NCBI GenBank assembly: GCA_034002925.1
Contig: JAVEZP010000003.1
Coordinates: forward strand, 11,712 to 75,711
DNA: 64,000 nucleotides
Reading direction: 5' to 3'
Source of the DNA: Patescibacteria group bacterium
GTDB lineage: Bacteria; Patescibacteriota; Patescibacteriia; Patescibacteriales; UBA12465
The notes below the pieces were generated by a model. That model ran no database searches. It saw nothing but the letters and a program-made list of their open reading frames with translations, and had not been told where the DNA came from. Numbering within the stretch: position 1 is the first letter of the stretch; every line of letters begins with the position of its first letter. The position numbers and the translations under genes are program-made. Shown here piece after piece: positions 18,708 through 37,963 of the stretch.

Positions 18708-19682
18708 TTATACTAACTCATCAGGAAAATCTTGTAAGGCTTTTTTAAAATCATCTAGAGTATTAATTTGTGACATTTTTTCTCTGTAGGCGGCAGCTCC
18801 GGGAAGACCTTTGATATACCATAGGAGTTGTTTTTTAAATTCAGGTAGACCTAATTCTCCTTTTTTATTGTATACCAGTTCAAGGTGTTCTAAAGCAATG
18901 GCTTTTTTTTCTGTCCAAGTTTTGGCTGTATATTTTCCAGTTTTAAGGTAATCTTTTATTTCTTGAAAAATCCAAGGTCGACCATAGACGCCATGACCGA
19001 TACCGATACCGTCTGCTTGGCTTATTTCTAAGGCTTCTTTGGCTTTTTCTGGCTCATAGATACCACCGTTAGCTAAAACAACACCTTTAAATTTTTCTTT
19101 TACTTTTCTTATATAATCATAGTCAACCTCTTCAATCCAAGGAGCTTCAAAAGAACGACCGTGAATCATCACAGCAGCAATAGGCAGATCTTTGACGTAT
19201 TCTAATAAATCAAGACTAGTTTGAATACTCCCATCTGGCATTTTAATACTAGTTCTGGTTTTAATTGAAACTGGCAAAGTCCCAGCTCCTTCAATGGTTT
19301 TTTCAATAATTTTTCTTGCTAAAGGTAGATTTCGTAATAGCGCTACACCGCTATCATTACCCGCTATTTTTTTAGCCGGACAGCCAAAGTTAATATCAAT
19401 GCCACTAGCCCCTAATTCTTTGGCAATTTGAGCTGATTCTTTAAAATATTCTGGCTCCTTACCCCCTAATTGAATAATGACTGGTTGTTCCTCTTTTTCA
19501 ACAGTCGCTAAACGCAAGGCGCTGGGATTCTTGCGGACTAAAGATTGGACCATGATCATTTCGGTGTATACCAAATCAGCCCCCAGTTTTTTACACATTA
19601 AACGAAAGGGCAGATCGGTCACGCCGCACATTGGCGCTAAAGCTAATATTGGTTTGTTTAATTCTTCCCAAAAGTTTTTCAT
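18708..19682 (-). CDS. dus: tRNA-dihydrouridine synthase
   Basis: LAPMCGVTDLPFR, IDINFGCP and GRPWIF blocks of the Dus family. Confidence 0.85.
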   Translation of the reverse strand: MKNFWEELNKPILALAPMCGVTDLPFRLMCKKLGADLVYTEMIMVQSLVRKNPSALRLATVEKEEQPVIIQLGGKEPEYFKESAQIAKELGASGIDINFGCPAKKIAGNDSGVALLRNLPLARKIIEKTIEGAGTLPVSIKTRTSIKMPDGSIQTSLDLLEYVKDLPIAAVMIHGRSFEAPWIEEVDYDYIRKVKEKFKGVVLANGGIYEPEKAKEALEISQADGIGIGHGVYGRPWIFQEIKDYLKTGKYTAKTWTEKKAIALEHLELVYNKKGELGLPEFKKQLLWYIKGLPGAAAYREKMSQINTLDDFKKALQDFPDELV

Positions 19683-23200: not shown

Positions 23201-23941
23201 ATGAAAACTAATCAAAAAACAGTCTTAGTGACTGGCGCCGCTCGAGGCATTGGACAAGCTATTGCTTTGCAATTTGCTCAAGCAGGGCACAGGATATTAT
23301 TTTGTGATTTAAAAAAACAAGATTGTGTTGAAACTTTAGCTTTATTGCAAAAACAAGGGGTGGAAGCGAGAGCTTTTGCTTGTGATGTTTCTAATAAGAA
23401 GCAAGTTGATCGTTTGTTGCGACAAATCCAAAAAGAGTATAAACACATTGATATCTTAGTGAATAATGCTGGTATTTTTCCTTTTCAGTCTTTTCTAAAA
23501 ATGACTGAGAAAGAATGGGACAGGGTGATAGATGTTAATTTAAAATCGGCTTTTTTAGTGACTCAAGCATCTTTAAAATTAATGAAATCAGGTTCTAAAA
23601 TTGTTTTCATTTCCTCTATCGCTGCTTTCGTCTCATTTGTTGGTTTAAGCCATTATAGTGCTTCCAAAGGAGCTTTAGGGGCGCTAGTGCGTGCTTTAGC
23701 TTTGGAATTGGCACCTCTAAAAATTAATGTTAATGCAGTAGCACCAGGAGCAATTGATACTCCTGGGGCCACTGGTAAGCAGAGCGCTGCTCAAAAAAAG
23801 AAAAGCGCCAAAGCAATTGCTTGGGGTCGCTTTGGTAAAGCGGAAGAGATTGCTTCAGCAGTTTCTTTTCTAAGCTCAGAACAAGCTGAGTATATTACTG
23901 GTCAAACTCTAGTAGTTGATGGTGGTTATACTTTAGTATAA
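23201..23941 (+). CDS. Short-chain dehydrogenase/reductase (FabG-like)
   Basis: TGAARGIGQAIA, NNAG and YSASKGAL catalytic motif. Confidence 0.8.
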   Translation: MKTNQKTVLVTGAARGIGQAIALQFAQAGHRILFCDLKKQDCVETLALLQKQGVEARAFACDVSNKKQVDRLLRQIQKEYKHIDILVNNAGIFPFQSFLKMTEKEWDRVIDVNLKSAFLVTQASLKLMKSGSKIVFISSIAAFVSFVGLSHYSASKGALGALVRALALELAPLKINVNAVAPGAIDTPGATGKQSAAQKKKSAKAIAWGRFGKAEEIASAVSFLSSEQAEYITGQTLVVDGGYTLV

Positions 23942-23972
23942 GTTTATAAATATTAATACATTTATTCAAAAG

Positions 23973-24000
23973 AAAAGCGAGTGCAGAGCGCTCGCTTTTG
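23973..24000. terminator. Bidirectional terminator
   Basis: AAAAGCGAG-9 nt-CTCGCTTTT between convergent genes. Confidence 0.55.
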
Positions 24001-24004
24001 GTTT

Positions 24005-24193
24005 TTAAAAATAGAATTCTTTGGGACTTTCCATCTCTTCGCCGTTTAACATCCTAAAACCAACTATTAATTTATCCTCATCATATAAATCGATAAATTC
24101 ATCAGTGGCTAAAGGCAAATCTTTTTTATGCTTTAGCTTTTTTAGTGATTGAGGATCTGGTTTTAGGCTTAACTTCTTGTTTTTCATTGTCAA
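24005..24193 (-). CDS. Small hypothetical protein (62 aa)
   Basis: Only an ORF with a downstream terminator. No family recognised. Confidence 0.3.
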   Translation of the reverse strand: MTMKNKKLSLKPDPQSLKKLKHKKDLPLATDEFIDLYDEDKLIVGFRMLNGEEMESPKEFYF

Positions 24194-24333
24194 AGGATTC
24201 TTTTTTGTACCTCATGAAGAGGTATTAGCTAAATTATAATCTAGCTTTTATTAATTTATTATGTTATTAATTATTTGTCAATCTAATTAAAATTTTTAAT
24301 TATTTTTTTGTGATTGTTTTAAAATAATAATTT

Positions 24334-25614
24334 ATGAAACTTTTAAGATTAAAAAACAAAGAAGCTTTAGCGGTGGGAGCAATTATTGTAGCTGCTTTAT
24401 TGTGGAGCTTAGATGGTTTATTTTTAAGACCTAAGTTTTATGTACTCTCTGCACCTTTATTGGTTTTCTGGGAGCACTGCTTAGGCCTGATAGTTCTTAG
24501 TCCTTTTTTGTATATTTATCGTAAGCAGATTTTAACTTTACGAAAAAAAAGTTGGGCTGCTTTATTTTGGGTTAGCGTCTTTGGTGGCTTGATTGGAACA
24601 ATCATGATTACAAAAGCTTTCTTTGCTGCTTTTGCTGGAGAAGCGAGTTTTGCCACGGTCGTTATTTTACAGAAATTACAACCAATTTTTGCTTTATTAA
24701 TGGCAAGATTAATTTTAAAAGAAAAGTTGAGTAAAGAATTTTATTTTTGGGCTTTATTAGCTATTTTAGCTAGTTATGTCTTAGCCTTTGCGCAAAATGG
24801 TTTTAATTTTATAGATTTTAATTGGCAAGAAAATGCTGCTTTATTTGCTTTTTTAGCGGCTTTTGCTTTTGGTTCTTCAACGGTATTTGGAAAAAGGTTG
24901 GCTAATCATTTAGATTATAAAGCGGTAGCTGCTTTGCGTTTTGGTTTGACCTCTGTTTTAGCTTTTATTCTGGTATTATTTAATGGCGATATATTGTTAA
25001 GCCAAGAAATTAGTTCTCTGCAATGGCAGTTTCTATTACTAATTGTTGTCAGTAGTGGTGCTGGGGCTTTGTTTTTATACTATTTTGGTTTACGTCGAGT
25101 GAGCGCGTCAGCTGCAACCTTATTGGAACTTTTTTGGCCTTTTTCGGCTCTAATTTTAGATTATATTTTCAATGGCAATTATTTAAATTATGTTCAAATT
25201 ATTGCTTTGGGCTTTTTGTTGATAGCTTTCTTTCGCATTTCTTTCATTAGCAAGGCTAAACCTTTGTCTTTTGAGGCTCGGGTTATTACTGGTCAAGGGA
25301 AGGGCAAATCTCTGGGTTATCCGACGGCTAATTTAGATAAAGATGCGCTTGATATGCCTCATGGAGTCTATGCGGTGCAAGTTTTTATAGATAGGCAAAA
25401 GTATTACGGCTTATTGCATTTTGGTTTTAAAGATGTCTTTAAAGCAGATGTTTCGGCGGAGATTTTAATTAAAGATTTTGAAGCTGATATTTATAATCAG
25501 ACAATTAAAGTGCAGATTTTAGAGAAAGTGCGAGAAGTACGAGCTTTTAATAATATAGATGAGTTAAAATTAGCTATTGAGAATGATTTATTGTTTTTAA
25601 AAAAATATGTTTAA
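24334..25614 (+). CDS. Fusion protein: EamA/DMT-family 10-TM permease (N) + riboflavin kinase domain (C)
   Basis: About 300 aa of paired EamA-like helices. Then from about nt 25261: VITGQGKGKSLGYPTANL, HGVYAV, AEILIKDFEADIYNQTIKVQILEKVREVRAF..DELKLAIENDL, the RFK (RibF C-terminal domain) signature. Confidence 0.75.
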   Translation: MKLLRLKNKEALAVGAIIVAALLWSLDGLFLRPKFYVLSAPLLVFWEHCLGLIVLSPFLYIYRKQILTLRKKSWAALFWVSVFGGLIGTIMITKAFFAAFAGEASFATVVILQKLQPIFALLMARLILKEKLSKEFYFWALLAILASYVLAFAQNGFNFIDFNWQENAALFAFLAAFAFGSSTVFGKRLANHLDYKAVAALRFGLTSVLAFILVLFNGDILLSQEISSLQWQFLLLIVVSSGAGALFLYYFGLRRVSASAATLLELFWPFSALILDYIFNGNYLNYVQIIALGFLLIAFFRISFISKAKPLSFEARVITGQGKGKSLGYPTANLDKDALDMPHGVYAVQVFIDRQKYYGLLHFGFKDVFKADVSAEILIKDFEADIYNQTIKVQILEKVREVRAFNNIDELKLAIENDLLFLKKYV

Positions 25615-25721: not shown

Positions 25722-25754
25722 GGGGCTGTTTTTTAAATAACGGCCCCTTTTTTT
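25722..25754 (+). terminator. Rho-independent terminator
   Basis: GGGGCTGTT-8 nt-AACGGCCCC followed by T7. Confidence 0.6.
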
Positions 25755-33641: not shown

Positions 33642-34508
33642 ATGACTAAGCCAAAAAAAACCACAAAAACTAAGAAAAAAAGCAAAAAAATGTTAAATCC
33701 ATTTTTTACAGACAAAGACTTTAAATTATATCAAGCTAATAGTTTGGAATTTTTGGCTACTTTAGAAGAGAATTCGGTTGATATGATTTTTGCTGATCCG
33801 CCCTATATGTTGTCTAATGGTGGTTTTTCAGTGCATGCTGGGAAAATGGTTAGTGTTAATAAGGGAGAATGGGATGTTAGCAATGGCCTTAAAAAAGACT
33901 TTGAATTTCAATTAGCGTGGATTCAGGCTTGTCACAGAGTGTTAAAACCTGGTGGCACAATTTGGATTTCTGGAACCTATCATTCTATTTATCAATGTGG
34001 CTTTGCTCTTCAGGTAAGCAAGTTTCATATTTTAAACGATATTGCATGGTTTAAACCCAATGCTTCTCCTAATCTAAGTTGTCGCTTTTTTACAGCTAGT
34101 CACGAAACTCTCATTTGGGCAAGAAAAGAATTAGTGCATCCTAAAACAGGTAAAAAGATTAATACTAAACATAAGTTTAATTATGATTTAATGAAAAATG
34201 GTCATTGGCCAGAGGACTTTTTGAAAAAACCTAATTTACAGATGCGTAGTGTGTGGTCAATGGGTACACCTAAGCCAGCAGAGAAAAAACACGGTAAACA
34301 CCCGACTCAAAAACCAATAGATTTATTAGTTCGTATTGTAATAGCTAGTACTAATAAGGGTGATTTAGTTATTGATCCATTCACTGGATCCTCCACAACT
34401 GGCTTAGCTTGTGTTTTAAATGATAGAAAATTCATTGGCATCGATTTGGAGAAGAAATATTTGGAGTTGTCTGTTAAGAGATATAAGGATTTATTAGGCA
34501 ATAAATAA
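33642..34508 (+). CDS. Beta-class N6-adenine DNA methyltransferase, DpnA (M2.DpnII)-like
   Basis: DMIFADPPYMLSNGG (motif IV) precedes DPFTGSSTTG (motif I). NLSCRFFT, ETLIWARK and GKHPTQKP blocks align with my recollection of DpnA. A TATAAT hexamer abuts the 33642 ATG, so ATG 33690 (MLNPFF) may be the real start. Confidence 0.85.
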   Translation: MTKPKKTTKTKKKSKKMLNPFFTDKDFKLYQANSLEFLATLEENSVDMIFADPPYMLSNGGFSVHAGKMVSVNKGEWDVSNGLKKDFEFQLAWIQACHRVLKPGGTIWISGTYHSIYQCGFALQVSKFHILNDIAWFKPNASPNLSCRFFTASHETLIWARKELVHPKTGKKINTKHKFNYDLMKNGHWPEDFLKKPNLQMRSVWSMGTPKPAEKKHGKHPTQKPIDLLVRIVIASTNKGDLVIDPFTGSSTTGLACVLNDRKFIGIDLEKKYLELSVKRYKDLLGNK

Positions 34509-34516
34509 ATATAATC

Positions 34517-36187
34517 TTGAATTTTATGAATAATGACATATATGCTGGTTCATATCTATATTCTTCAATTATAGATAAAGTTTCAGCAAAACATTTAATA
34601 CCAACGTTACAGCGGCCTTATGTCTGGACGGATAAAAAACAGGTGAAAAAATTTATTGAAGACATTTTAACTAGCAATGATTATTATTTTATTGGTAGTT
34701 TGGTTTTTGTTTTGTCGTCGAACGGGACCGTTGGAAGGGATGAGATTATAGATGGGCAACAGCGGATGATAACCATATCTTTAATTTTGATAGCAATAAG
34801 AGATCTAATTATAAAGCATAAAAAGGAGAAAAAATTAAACGATGCCTTGCGTGAAATTAGTGGTTTTTTAGAATTTGTAGATTCATATGATTTAAAAAAG
34901 AGCCCAAGAATAGAATTTTATGACAAAAGAACAAATAGTTTTTATATAAAATTATTAAAAGGAGAAGCCGGATCTCCTGAAACAGAAACACAAAAAAGAA
35001 TTTTAGATAATTATAATTATATTTATAAAGAGTTAGCTAAAAAGTGTGGCAAAAATATTGATGTAGAGATCACGAGTTTTTTGAACAAGATAAAAACGCT
35101 TAAGGTTATTGCTATAAGTTGTACAAATAATTCAATAGCATATGAATTGTTTGAGAGTATAAACGCTACCGGAATGTCATTGGCTAGCGTTGATTTAATT
35201 AAAAATTTTCTTTTTAAAAATGCATCAAAAGATAAGTCTTTACTATCTAAAGTTGAAACAAATTGGCAAAAATTAGAGGATATATTTTCAGACAATAGAG
35301 CACTTTTCAAAACATTTTTAAGACATCACTGGATAAGCAATGGCTATTATATTAGTCATTCTGGTTTATATTCTGATGTTGAAGTAAAACATAAAGAAAA
35401 AAAAATCACTTCGGTAAGCTATTCTGAGGAATTAGCACATGATGCAGTTACTTATGTGTCGTTGAGGACTGCCAATGCCGAGTCTTTAAGCAAGATACAA
35501 AAATGGAAAAGATTTGATGCAAAATCCGTTAAAGAGGTTCTTGAATTTCTTTCCTTTTTGAGCGTAGATCAGGTTTATGCCCCAATTTTATTTTTTTATA
35601 AAAATGAAAGCAAAGATAAGTTTAAAAAAATGCTTAATAGATTAGCAGCTTTTCAATTTTTGTATAAGTATATTGCAGGAAGCCCAAGTTCTGCGGAGAA
35701 AATATTTGCTGGCTTTGCTAAAAATAACAAGGATGTTAATACACTATTTCAAGAATTGCACAATTTAGTAAAGAACGGTCACGACGAGTTCGTAGAAAAT
35801 TTTTCAAAAAAAAGCATTTACAAAGTATCTAAAAGTGGAGATGTGCAGTTTGTTCTAGAGAGATATGTTTTTTCTAAGGGCGGGGCTCGATCATTCAAAG
35901 AGCCCACTATAGAGCATATAATAAGTCAATGTGATAAAGATGATGATTATGTCCATGAAATTGGTAATCTTACTATTTTTGAACTTAGTGAGAATTCTAA
36001 ATTGCCGACAAAATTTAAAGATAAAATTAGTATTTATAAAAAAAGTCCATATAAAGAGCATCAATTAATTTTAAAATATGATTTTGATAAAAATTATAAA
36101 AAATCTATCAAAAGAAGAACTGAAGATATAGCATCAGATGTTTATGATATTTTTGTTAATATTTTAAAGACCGGTAAAATTATATGA
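34517..36187 (+). CDS. DUF262/DUF1524 (GmrSD-like) putative modification-dependent nuclease
   Basis: N-terminal DUF262 (IPTLQRPYVWTDKKQVKKFIEDI, IIDGQQR). C-terminal DUF1524 His-Me finger-like (TIEHIISQ...IGNLTIFELSENSK). Possible ATG start at 26 nt further in, 34526. Confidence 0.8.
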   Translation: MNFMNNDIYAGSYLYSSIIDKVSAKHLIPTLQRPYVWTDKKQVKKFIEDILTSNDYYFIGSLVFVLSSNGTVGRDEIIDGQQRMITISLILIAIRDLIIKHKKEKKLNDALREISGFLEFVDSYDLKKSPRIEFYDKRTNSFYIKLLKGEAGSPETETQKRILDNYNYIYKELAKKCGKNIDVEITSFLNKIKTLKVIAISCTNNSIAYELFESINATGMSLASVDLIKNFLFKNASKDKSLLSKVETNWQKLEDIFSDNRALFKTFLRHHWISNGYYISHSGLYSDVEVKHKEKKITSVSYSEELAHDAVTYVSLRTANAESLSKIQKWKRFDAKSVKEVLEFLSFLSVDQVYAPILFFYKNESKDKFKKMLNRLAAFQFLYKYIAGSPSSAEKIFAGFAKNNKDVNTLFQELHNLVKNGHDEFVENFSKKSIYKVSKSGDVQFVLERYVFSKGGARSFKEPTIEHIISQCDKDDDYVHEIGNLTIFELSENSKLPTKFKDKISIYKKSPYKEHQLILKYDFDKNYKKSIKRRTEDIASDVYDIFVNILKTGKII

Positions 36188-37101
36188 AATTTCTAAATTT
36201 TTACAAAAAAAAACTAAGTTGTCAAAATGAAGACGAAGTTTTTAATTATTTAATTAATAACTTAAAGCCAAGTATTATTCTTTGGTCTTATTTTGTTAAT
36301 TGGGATAAGGTTTTTAATAATACCAAAAAGATAGAAATAGCTTTAAATAATCTTAATTATTTAATTGGAAAAGAAGATTTTGATAGTGAATTCAGATTTT
36401 TAATTAAGGAAAATCCAGAAATTGCTAAAGTTATTCCTGCGTTGGTTGTGCGTGATGGAAGTAATACTAATAAATTTAATATTTTAGTTGATTATAAAGG
36501 TAAGAAACTAGTTTATGAAGAATACGATTTTTCTAAAAAAGAGATGACAGATGAGGACGTGGAAAAGTATCTTATGTTTGTAAAAGAGTCAGGATTAAAA
36601 GATTTAATTATCTCACAAAAAATCAAAAACCTTGTTGATTATATGATTGGCGTAGAGGCTGGGCTTGATAGTAATGGTAGAAAAAATAGAGGTGGCCATT
36701 CTATGGAGAGTATAATAGAATTTTTTATTAAAGATGTTTGTGAGAGTAAAAAATATAGCTATATTAAAGAAGCAACCTCAGAGAAAATAAATAAAGAATG
36801 GGGCTATGACGTTCCAGTGGACAAGTCTTCTCGCAGATATGATTTTGTTGTTAACACTGGCAAAGAACTTGTTATTTTTGAAACTAATTTTTATGGTGGT
36901 AGTGGCTCTAAGTTAAAGTCAACTGCTGGAGAATATAGAGACCTTTTTAATGTCTTAAAAGGTCAATATAAGTTTATTTGGATTACAGATGGTAATGGCT
37001 GGAAGTCTACAGCCCGGCCCCTTAGGGAAACCTTTAATCACAATGACTATGTGATTAGTTTAGAGATGGTTGAAAAGGGTATTTTAAATGAAATCTTTTA
37101 A
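36184..37101 (+). CDS. DpnII-family type II restriction endonuclease (predicted GATC)
   Basis: NLVDYMIGVEAGLDSNGRKNRGGHSMESI, RYDFVV, ETNFYGGSGSKLKSTAGEY, WITDGNGW and LRETF match the DpnII/MboI family blocks as I recall them. Start overlaps the previous stop (ATGA). Confidence 0.8.
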   Translation: MKFLNFYKKKLSCQNEDEVFNYLINNLKPSIILWSYFVNWDKVFNNTKKIEIALNNLNYLIGKEDFDSEFRFLIKENPEIAKVIPALVVRDGSNTNKFNILVDYKGKKLVYEEYDFSKKEMTDEDVEKYLMFVKESGLKDLIISQKIKNLVDYMIGVEAGLDSNGRKNRGGHSMESIIEFFIKDVCESKKYSYIKEATSEKINKEWGYDVPVDKSSRRYDFVVNTGKELVIFETNFYGGSGSKLKSTAGEYRDLFNVLKGQYKFIWITDGNGWKSTARPLRETFNHNDYVISLEMVEKGILNEIF

Positions 37102-37165
37102 TTAAAGATATAAAAATCATTAAGCTTGTTGAGATGAATTTAAAAACCGTTGATGTGCCACAAGG

Positions 37166-37963
37166 ATGTATAAAGTGTTTTATTATATGAACATTTTTAA
37201 AAAAGAAAAATCATATTCTAAACAAAAGATTAAAATTAATCTTATAAAACAGTGGATTTTTTATATTTTTGCCTTCTTGCTTATTGTTGTTTACCTCTCT
37301 TATTCTATTAATAAATATAGACATTTAGATCGAGATACGCTTAGGGTTTTTGCTTTACTAACATTAGGCTTTCTTTCTGGTATATTGTCTTTGTGGTTTT
37401 TAAAGTTAATTAATAATTTCTTTTCAAAAACTGATACTGAGATAAATAAGGCTAGGAAGGGAAACGAAGGAGAAAAATTAACCTATCTTAATTTAGTTAA
37501 ATTTCTGGGTAATAATTATAAAATTTATAAAAATTTTAAAATACCTAATCGTAAATTTGATATAGATTTTTTAATAGTTGGCCCTAAGGGATTAATAGTG
37601 ATAGAAGTAAAAAATAGTTCAAATTCCTATATTTTTACAGAAAAAGAAGCTAGGAGAATAAAGGGAGAAGGATATTCTAGGAAAACTACTCTTTTGTTTG
37701 GTAATTGCGATCCTCGTGTAAAGCTAATAAATCATTGCAAATCTTTAAATCATTATTTATATTCCTTGGGTTTAGTTGGTTTTAGGATTAAAAAGGCTTT
37801 GTTGTTTATTAATGGGAATATAAGCATTAATGATAAATCCGGTGTATATATTATTAATGGAATAAGCAAATTGCGTGAGTATATAGAAGGACTAAATTAT
37901 GACGATAGATTCACTGCAGAATTTTGTGAGACTGTTAATAGGAGCTTAATTGATAAAATATAA
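37166..37963 (+). CDS. NERD (nuclease-related domain) protein with two N-terminal TM helices
   Basis: GNEGEKLTYLNLVKFLG...KFDIDFLIVGPKGLIVIEVKN fits the NERD core (GxxGE...D-x-hhh...G-hhhhE-x-K). Preceded by two hydrophobic helices. Confidence 0.65.
   Translation: MYKVFYYMNIFKKEKSYSKQKIKINLIKQWIFYIFAFLLIVVYLSYSINKYRHLDRDTLRVFALLTLGFLSGILSLWFLKLINNFFSKTDTEINKARKGNEGEKLTYLNLVKFLGNNYKIYKNFKIPNRKFDIDFLIVGPKGLIVIEVKNSSNSYIFTEKEARRIKGEGYSRKTTLLFGNCDPRVKLINHCKSLNHYLYSLGLVGFRIKKALLFINGNISINDKSGVYIINGISKLREYIEGLNYDDRFTAEFCETVNRSLIDKI

Follow-up and report, generated by a model that had tools for sequence, protein, structure and literature searches.

A permease–riboflavin kinase fusion conserved across Patescibacteria as a probable single-chain riboflavin importer

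Why would a riboflavin kinase be produced on the same polypeptide as a membrane transporter? The question is raised by a gene found on a 64,000-nucleotide stretch of contig JAVEZP010000003.1 (assembly GCA_034002925.1, Patescibacteria group bacterium), hereafter called the window. The gene, located at positions 24334–25614 on the + strand, encodes a permease of the drug/metabolite transporter (DMT)/EamA type followed by a riboflavin kinase (RFK) domain. A preliminary description of this DNA had proposed that the fusion couples import directly to phosphorylation of the vitamin, which would suit an organism lacking riboflavin biosynthesis. The evidence presented below indicates that the gene probably encodes a single-chain riboflavin importer with a built-in trapping kinase.

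As the preliminary description had noted, the coding sequence is one open reading frame (ORF); it has an ATG start and 426 codons plus a stop, and both Pfam domains lie in the same frame. EamA (PF00892) was detected as two tandem repeats (E=9.7e-28; 97.6 bits versus a gathering cut-off of 28.2) and Flavokinase (PF01687) was detected between residues 309 and 425 (E=1.1e-27; 97.1 bits versus 19.6), matching profile positions 3–123 out of 124. An AlphaFold2 model built from 44 homologues (predicted local distance difference test score, pLDDT, 84.2; predicted template modelling score, pTM, 0.82) consists of ten transmembrane helices, a linker of ~8 residues and a beta-barrel domain. The permease half (24334–25245, +; residues 1–304) contains the ten helices and has both its N- and C-termini in the cytoplasm. 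Helix 10 ends at residue 305 and the first strand of the barrel begins at residue 312. The linker, ‘SKAKPLSF’, starts at 25246–25257 (+; residues 305–308), its residues 309–311 already falling within the Pfam match to the kinase, and the RFK domain occupies 25258–25608 (+; residues 309–425). The short linker and the high pTM suggest that, as modelled, the kinase lies packed onto the permease on its cytoplasmic side. No FMN (flavin mononucleotide) adenylyltransferase domain (PF06574) was matched by Pfam in the fusion protein at E≤1, and the NCBIfam RibF models aligned with the C-terminal kinase module only (profile positions ~181–300), with scores far under their cut-offs. The protein therefore has no FAD (flavin adenine dinucleotide)-synthetase-type adenylyltransferase domain attached, as anticipated from the sequence.

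An ORF of this kind could in principle result from a sequencing or assembly artefact, such as a frameshift joining two adjacent genes. The conservation of the fusion rules this out and leaves the explanation with next to no probability. Both domains were found in one ORF in 120/120 listed homologues (57–99% identity, 400–451 amino acids), on contigs of up to 959 kb and in independent NCBI, JGI, ENA and Logan assemblies. In all, the unbroken ORF recurs in hundreds of such assemblies. A scan using one genome per species identified relatives in at least 506 genomes. The best 80 loci were covered with 10 kb on either side of each match; the full-length fusion (at least 400 amino acids) was present at 63 of them, in species-representative genomes that were mostly Patescibacteria and that included a complete 977-kb Falkowbacteria chromosome (CP066698.1, locus L013). 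The sequence joining the last transmembrane helix to the kinase contains no stop and no change of frame, and residues of the junction such as F313 are invariant in alignment A1, made of 44 diverse fusion proteins, over which all invariance was scored. The survey of the fusion across genomes, suggested in the preliminary description, thus found it in every listed homologue, and fused members reached down to ~33% identity in a search of 50%-identity representatives. The hosts, as labelled, are Falkowbacteria, Magasanikbacteria, Moraniibacteriota, Paceibacterota/Parcubacteria, Nomurabacteria, Roizmanbacteria and ‘Patescibacteria group’. One 90% cluster, represented by P0001 (99% identity to the window protein), includes a sequence that NCBI lists as ‘EamA family transporter [Patescibacteria group bacterium]’. 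In the lineage of the window protein, the fusion is the rule.

Several loci depart from the common arrangement. One Falkowbacteria genome carries two tandem paralogues of the fusion (L038, 9983–11266 and 11271–12569) encoding 428 and 433 residues; these may differ in specificity or may reflect a recent duplication. At L049 (2387–2965) and L069 (10461–11261), the RFK part was found in shorter ORFs of 193 and 267 amino acids, and the tblastn match covers the whole protein; frameshifts, pseudogenes or sequencing errors could account for these. Fusions were also found in metagenome-assembled genomes labelled Nanoarchaeota, Woesearchaeota, ‘archaeon’, Bdellovibrionales and Gammaproteobacteria (L025, L027, L051, L052 and many ‘uncultured Gammaproteobacteria’ loci). 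These genomes may be wrongly labelled or wrongly binned members of the candidate phyla radiation (CPR); alternatively, they may represent real transfer into DPANN archaea. Synteny around the fusion is weakly conserved, no neighbour being common to more than 13/63 loci; the most shared neighbours are AdoHcyase, MetK, a PfkB kinase and genes resembling those of type IV secretion systems (T4SS).

The kinase half has the fold and the active-site residues of a riboflavin kinase. Sequence matches in the PDB included the FAD synthetases (FADS) of T. maritima (3.9e-18) and S. pneumoniae (4.7e-16), and also proteins from S. pombe and C. ammoniagenes and human RFK. Foldseek matched the beta-barrel to the RFK modules 3op1, 1s4m, 2x0k, 1n06 and 1q9s, which come from the FAD synthetases of T. 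maritima, S. pneumoniae and C. ammoniagenes and from the RFKs of S. pombe and human. The PTAN motif of the active site, read from the sequence at 25321–25332 (+; P330-T331-A332-N333), aligns with the PTAN of solved RFKs. The presumed catalytic base, E376 (25459–25461, +), aligns with the glutamate that the RFK module of C. ammoniagenes carries in ‘SVESFVLD’ and that corresponds to E268 of that enzyme; the catalytic role given here to PTAN and E376 is the one established for C. ammoniagenes FADS and for human RFK. T331, A332, N333 and E376 are invariant across the 44 fusions, as are G320, G324 and G328 of the glycine-rich loop, and P330 is nearly invariant among 121 aligned sequences. The kinase signatures quoted in the preliminary description were located: GQGKGKSLGYPTAN with PTAN at residues 330–333, GVYA at residues 344–347 and E376 in ‘SAEILIKDF’. 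With a complete PF01687 domain, these residues and an RFK beta-barrel, the last ~120 amino acids are confirmed as a riboflavin kinase domain. The same PF01687 domain, PTAN motif, glutamate and beta-barrel are found in the RibF/RibC FAD synthetases and in the monofunctional RFKs (S. pombe Fmn1, human). RibF/RibC differ in having an FMN adenylyltransferase at the N-terminus, in the position taken by a membrane permease in the window protein.

Conservation of these residues bears on the proposal that the RFK domain has become a non-catalytic sensor of flavins or nucleotides that gates the permease. Domains of this function have been recruited for regulation before, as in the archaeal protein RbkR (PMC5397151), and the short linker and the pTM of 0.82 suggest a fixed contact between the two halves. 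A domain freed from catalysis would nevertheless have to have kept PTAN, the glutamate base and three glycines across 44 diverse fusions. RbkR itself retains kinase activity, so that regulation and catalysis are compatible (PMC5397151). We consider a purely sensory domain very unlikely, and a catalytic kinase remains the preferred assignment.

The permease half gave no sequence-level match in the PDB at E≤10. Its predicted structure was matched by Foldseek to the DMT transporters 5y78 (a triose-phosphate translocator), 7paf (LicB) and 5i20 (YddG), with TM-scores of 0.66–0.79 when normalised by target length. Together with the PF00892 match and the ten helices of the model, these matches bear out the earlier assignment of the first ~300 residues to a 10-TM EamA-type permease, so that profile searches and folds agree for both halves of the protein. 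Lysine and arginine residues in the loops are distributed with 21 predicted inside and 1 outside; both termini, and therefore the kinase, are cytoplasmic, where ATP is available. Invariant motifs of the permease are W24-S25-x-D27-G28, R32-P33, E47-H48, Q113-K-L-Q-P117, S182-T-V-x-G-K-R188, E265-x-F-W-P269 and D276. Many of the invariant residues are polar and lie in the membrane core (D27, R32, E47, H48, Q113, K114, Q116, K187, R188, E265 and D276), which argues for a conserved binding site rather than a membrane anchor. The opposite proposal, in which the permease half merely anchors the kinase or transports an unrelated substrate and the fusion has no meaning for transport, can draw on the size and functional diversity of the EamA family (10,861 representatives at E≤1e-3) and on the fact that most of the unfused relatives looked up have no flavin context. 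It is weakened by the invariant polar residues and by the three kinds of genomic link described below, which are unlikely to coincide by chance, and we regard it as highly improbable.

Within the DMT superfamily, a riboflavin importer, RibN, is already known, and the preliminary description had appealed to it. Published mutagenesis primers allowed us to retrieve V. cholerae RibN on a metagenome contig (L082, 5506–6402); the recovered protein has 298 residues, both ends match the primers and a glutaredoxin-domain gene follows, as reported (PMC5312566). Its similarity to the permease half is limited to 24% identity over 148 amino acids (pairwise E=0.007), and it was not detected by phmmer. Against a hidden Markov model of the subfamily it scored 24.6 bits, compared with ~108–455 bits for subfamily members against the window protein. 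RibN lacks the subfamily motifs (WSxDG, RP, EH, QKLQP, SSTVxGKR, ExFWP and D276), and in a rough tree of the permease domain, made by neighbour joining, it forms a distant outgroup on a long branch. Orthology with RibN was therefore rejected, full-length similarity at the level of orthologues being absent; the appeal to RibN holds at the level of the superfamily and fails as orthology. By these sequence comparisons, the permease is assigned to a DMT subfamily distinct from RibN. RibN, described from Rhizobium leguminosarum, Vibrio cholerae and Aeromonas salmonicida, shares with the window protein its superfamily and fold class, a length of ~300 residues and the annotation ‘DMT family transporter’ (PMC10012899). 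RibN imports riboflavin, in some rhizobia under FMN riboswitch control, and differs in being reported only in Proteobacteria (PMC4418817) and in never having been described as a kinase fusion. A Pfam scan of the fusion protein at E≤1 returned EamA and Flavokinase only, with no match to ImpX/SLC52; ImpX has been described as a distant homologue of eukaryotic RFT2 (PMC4418817). In its proposed function the protein probably resembles the RibN-type importers, from outside their family.

Membership of the EamA family by itself tells nothing about the substrate. Unfused orthologues of the permease provided the evidence for riboflavin, through genomic associations with riboflavin or RFK that are of three independent kinds. 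The first was seen in Cloacimonadota, where an unfused orthologue (L080; 52% identical over 300 amino acids, E=2e-102) stands alone directly behind an FMN riboswitch aptamer (RF00050; 111.3 bits, cut-off 66.2), and a 15-bp terminator hairpin followed by a T-run lies between the aptamer and the gene. Read from the sequence, such an arrangement is typical of riboswitches that terminate transcription (OFF type). At two further Cloacimonadota loci, L073 and L074, an FMN riboswitch (110 bits and 107.3 bits, respectively) is followed by ribD, ribE, ribBA, ribH and, last, the EamA orthologue. The second link comes from a DPANN archaeon (Micrarchaeota, L091, 3640–5239), in which the start of an orthologue that is 37% identical (E=1e-63) and keeps the family motifs overlaps the end of a gene for a 222-residue protein with a helix-turn-helix (HTH)-like N-terminus and a CTP-dependent RFK domain (PF01982, 8e-41). 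By its domain composition this product is RbkR-like, with a kinase non-homologous to the bacterial RFK. The third link is at L094, where a stand-alone gene for a 125-residue PF01687 flavokinase adjoins the permease orthologue.

When the permease domain was placed in a rough neighbour-joining tree, fused members were intermingled with unfused ones throughout the subfamily, and the association with RFK therefore recurs. The pattern suggests that fusion or fission took place repeatedly, or at the least that the partnership with RFK is an old one. The riboflavin role of the permease half, which had been proposed from superfamily membership, now has comparative-genomic support from riboswitches, a rib operon and RFK neighbours of orthologues.

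The same loci also bear on the direction of transport and on the identity of the flavin. The permease might move a flavin outward, for instance FMN produced by the attached kinase, for extracellular electron shuttling, or it might import an analogue or a precursor. Many characterised DMT/EamA proteins are exporters, and the last position in a riboflavin biosynthesis operon, seen at L073 and L074, would suit an exporter as well as an importer. A distant unfused relative (L092, 1–5939; 34–39% identical) is divergently oriented beside an Rnf/Nqr-type cluster with an FMN_bind subunit, which hints weakly at a connection with flavinylated membrane complexes and would also fit flavin export. The lone gene at L080, however, would be silenced by abundant FMN, given the predicted switch architecture, which is the logic of an importer rather than of an overflow exporter. 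The hosts of the fusion have no local rib genes, and reduced-genome CPR bacteria are unlikely to overproduce flavins. In addition, known importers such as RfnT are also found within rib operons (PMC4418817). Export, or transport of a different flavin, therefore appears unlikely, and import of riboflavin remains the preferred reading.

On this basis we infer the substrate, the direction of transport, the activity of the kinase and the coupling of the two halves, the coupling of import to phosphorylation being read from the anatomy of the protein. Riboflavin would cross the membrane through the N-terminal 10-TM DMT/EamA permease. The RFK domain, tethered ~8 residues from the cytoplasmic end of TM10, would then phosphorylate the entering riboflavin to FMN with ATP. 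The charged FMN could not diffuse back, so that uptake would become directional and be paid for in ATP, and a facilitator would be turned into what is effectively a one-way, ATP-driven accumulator. Such metabolic trapping would resemble group translocation.

A series of observations weighs against a riboflavin importer of this kind. The substrates of DMT proteins cannot be read from their sequences, and the frequency of exporters among them has been mentioned. A scan of the complete 64-kb window at Rfam gathering thresholds gave no FMN riboswitch; none was found at 23800–24500 even at E≤10, nor at the fused loci L013, L038 and L060. The closest unfused orthologues, in Neomarinimicrobiota/Fidelibacterota, have neither a riboswitch nor an RFK neighbour, and the neighbourhoods of several other unfused relatives likewise have no flavin context. 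Some fusion loci encode FAD-dependent enzymes, yet no FMN adenylyltransferase was found nearby. Across the 80 loci, an nhmmer search with the riboswitch profile returned nothing outside L073, L074 and L080.

The Neomarinimicrobiota/Fidelibacterota orthologue lies in a conserved block adjacent to dnaA (L055, 9088–10005, with equivalents at L057, L061–L063, L077–L079 and L084). At most of these loci (e.g. L055, L057 and L079) a conserved ORF of ~305 amino acids, in which no Pfam domain was found, runs at its end into the start of the orthologue. Cupin, S24 peptidase and UmuC-like genes come next. Two contigs with unfused orthologues (L083 and L085) contain in-frame stops under genetic code 11; a reassigned stop codon, as in Gracilibacteria-like lineages, is therefore likely.

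The supply and use of flavins around the fusion were also considered. No riboflavin biosynthesis genes were found among window ORFs of at least 100 amino acids or in the 10-kb flanks of the fusion loci, so that the suggestion of an organism lacking this pathway is upheld for the 64-kb window and these flanks. A phmmer search with the N-terminal domain of E. coli RibF, which has limited sensitivity, gave no match to an FMN adenylyltransferase in the window or at any locus. A PF01467 gene near the L085 orthologue was rejected as a candidate, its GRFQPFH motif being that of an archaeal-type nicotinamide mononucleotide (NMN) adenylyltransferase. The gene for the FMN-dependent dihydrouridine synthase Dus (18708–19682, − strand) is located 5 kb upstream of the fusion, and the enzyme is a likely consumer of the FMN that the fusion would make. 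At ~7 loci, a gene for an HI0933-like FAD flavoprotein is situated no more than 5 kb from the fusion, downstream of it in six, and at L010 (11296–12516) such a FAD-binding flavoprotein is encoded directly downstream. Since genes for FAD-binding flavoproteins adjoin some fusions, FAD seems to be needed in the hosts.

The window has a GC content of ~35% and a gene content typical of CPR bacteria, with lower glycolysis, a T4SS-type pilin and few biosynthetic genes. A short-chain dehydrogenase/reductase (SDR) gene lies upstream of the fusion gene and the Suf operon (Rrf2-suf) immediately downstream. Terminator-like hairpins were found on the + strand after the SDR gene (23973–23999; 12-bp stem plus T-run) and between the fusion gene and the Rrf2-suf operon (25722–25747; 9-bp stem with 6 GC pairs, plus T-run). 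Bracketed by these two hairpins, the fusion gene appears to form its own transcription unit. A consensus scan also returned a promoter-like site, TTGTCA-17-AATTAT, at 24275–24303 (+), 30 nt upstream of the start codon; such sites were no more numerous than in shuffled sequences. Elsewhere in the window, a low-GC island (33642–37963; 27–31% versus ~35%) encodes an N6/N4 DNA methylase, a GmrSD-type endonuclease, a DpnII endonuclease and a NERD nuclease, and is probably a horizontally acquired restriction/defence cluster.

The proposed logic has precedents in vitamin uptake. In the PnuC/NadR and RibM/RibF systems, an energy-independent permease is made directional by intracellular phosphorylation of the vitamin. 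PnuC acts with NadR on nicotinamide riboside, and RibM/PnuX acts with RibF, so that a permease and a trapping kinase are paired as suggested for the window protein. These systems differ in that the permease, a member of the Pnu family, and the kinase are made as two polypeptides; here a DMT permease and a kinase are joined by ~8 residues. Archaeal RbkR is similar in being a fusion, of a winged HTH domain with a CTP-dependent riboflavin kinase, that has a second role in flavin homeostasis (PMC5397151). Its kinase fold is non-homologous (PF01982 versus PF01687), and its partner is a DNA-binding domain, not a transporter. The riboflavin transporter genes controlled by RbkR are those for RibU and the MFS-type RibT, no DMT-type transporter being listed (PMC5397151).

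Both domain families and the trapping principle are already known, and the protein is present in databases under generic names, either ‘EamA family transporter’ or ‘riboflavin kinase’. In a full-text literature search, neither an EamA-RFK fusion nor a riboflavin-transporting role for this DMT subfamily was found described. With annotation pipelines labelling only one half, metabolic reconstructions miss half of the function of the protein.

A broader interpretation extends to both Bacteria and Archaea, including Patescibacteria, Cloacimonadota, Bacteroidota, possibly Marinimicrobia, and the DPANN Micrarchaeota. The subfamily may consist of unrecognised riboflavin transporters other than RibN, fused to RFK in CPR bacteria perhaps more than once. 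The fusion would then be the first single-chain transporter–vitamin kinase with vectorial phosphorylation like that of the phosphotransferase system (PTS), and might be the sole RFK in hosts lacking RibF. Taken as a whole, this interpretation is tentative, its chances falling slightly short of even.

Ultra-small CPR and DPANN organisms are thought to scavenge cofactors from hosts or neighbours, by uptake systems that are mostly unknown. If riboflavin is indeed imported and trapped by the fusion, a large part of the CPR would have a concrete and testable route of vitamin B2 acquisition, and a new family of riboflavin transporters could be recognised by its signature motifs and by the FMN riboswitches of its free-living relatives. 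It would also raise the question of where these organisms obtain FAD, RFK having left RibF and no FMN adenylyltransferase being seen nearby. As a natural fusion, the protein lends itself to structural and kinetic study of how a secondary-type permease and a trapping kinase are coupled, for example through substrate channelling or by cutting the linker. The result would not astonish a specialist; it provides a clean, testable hypothesis on vitamin scavenging in CPR and DPANN organisms.

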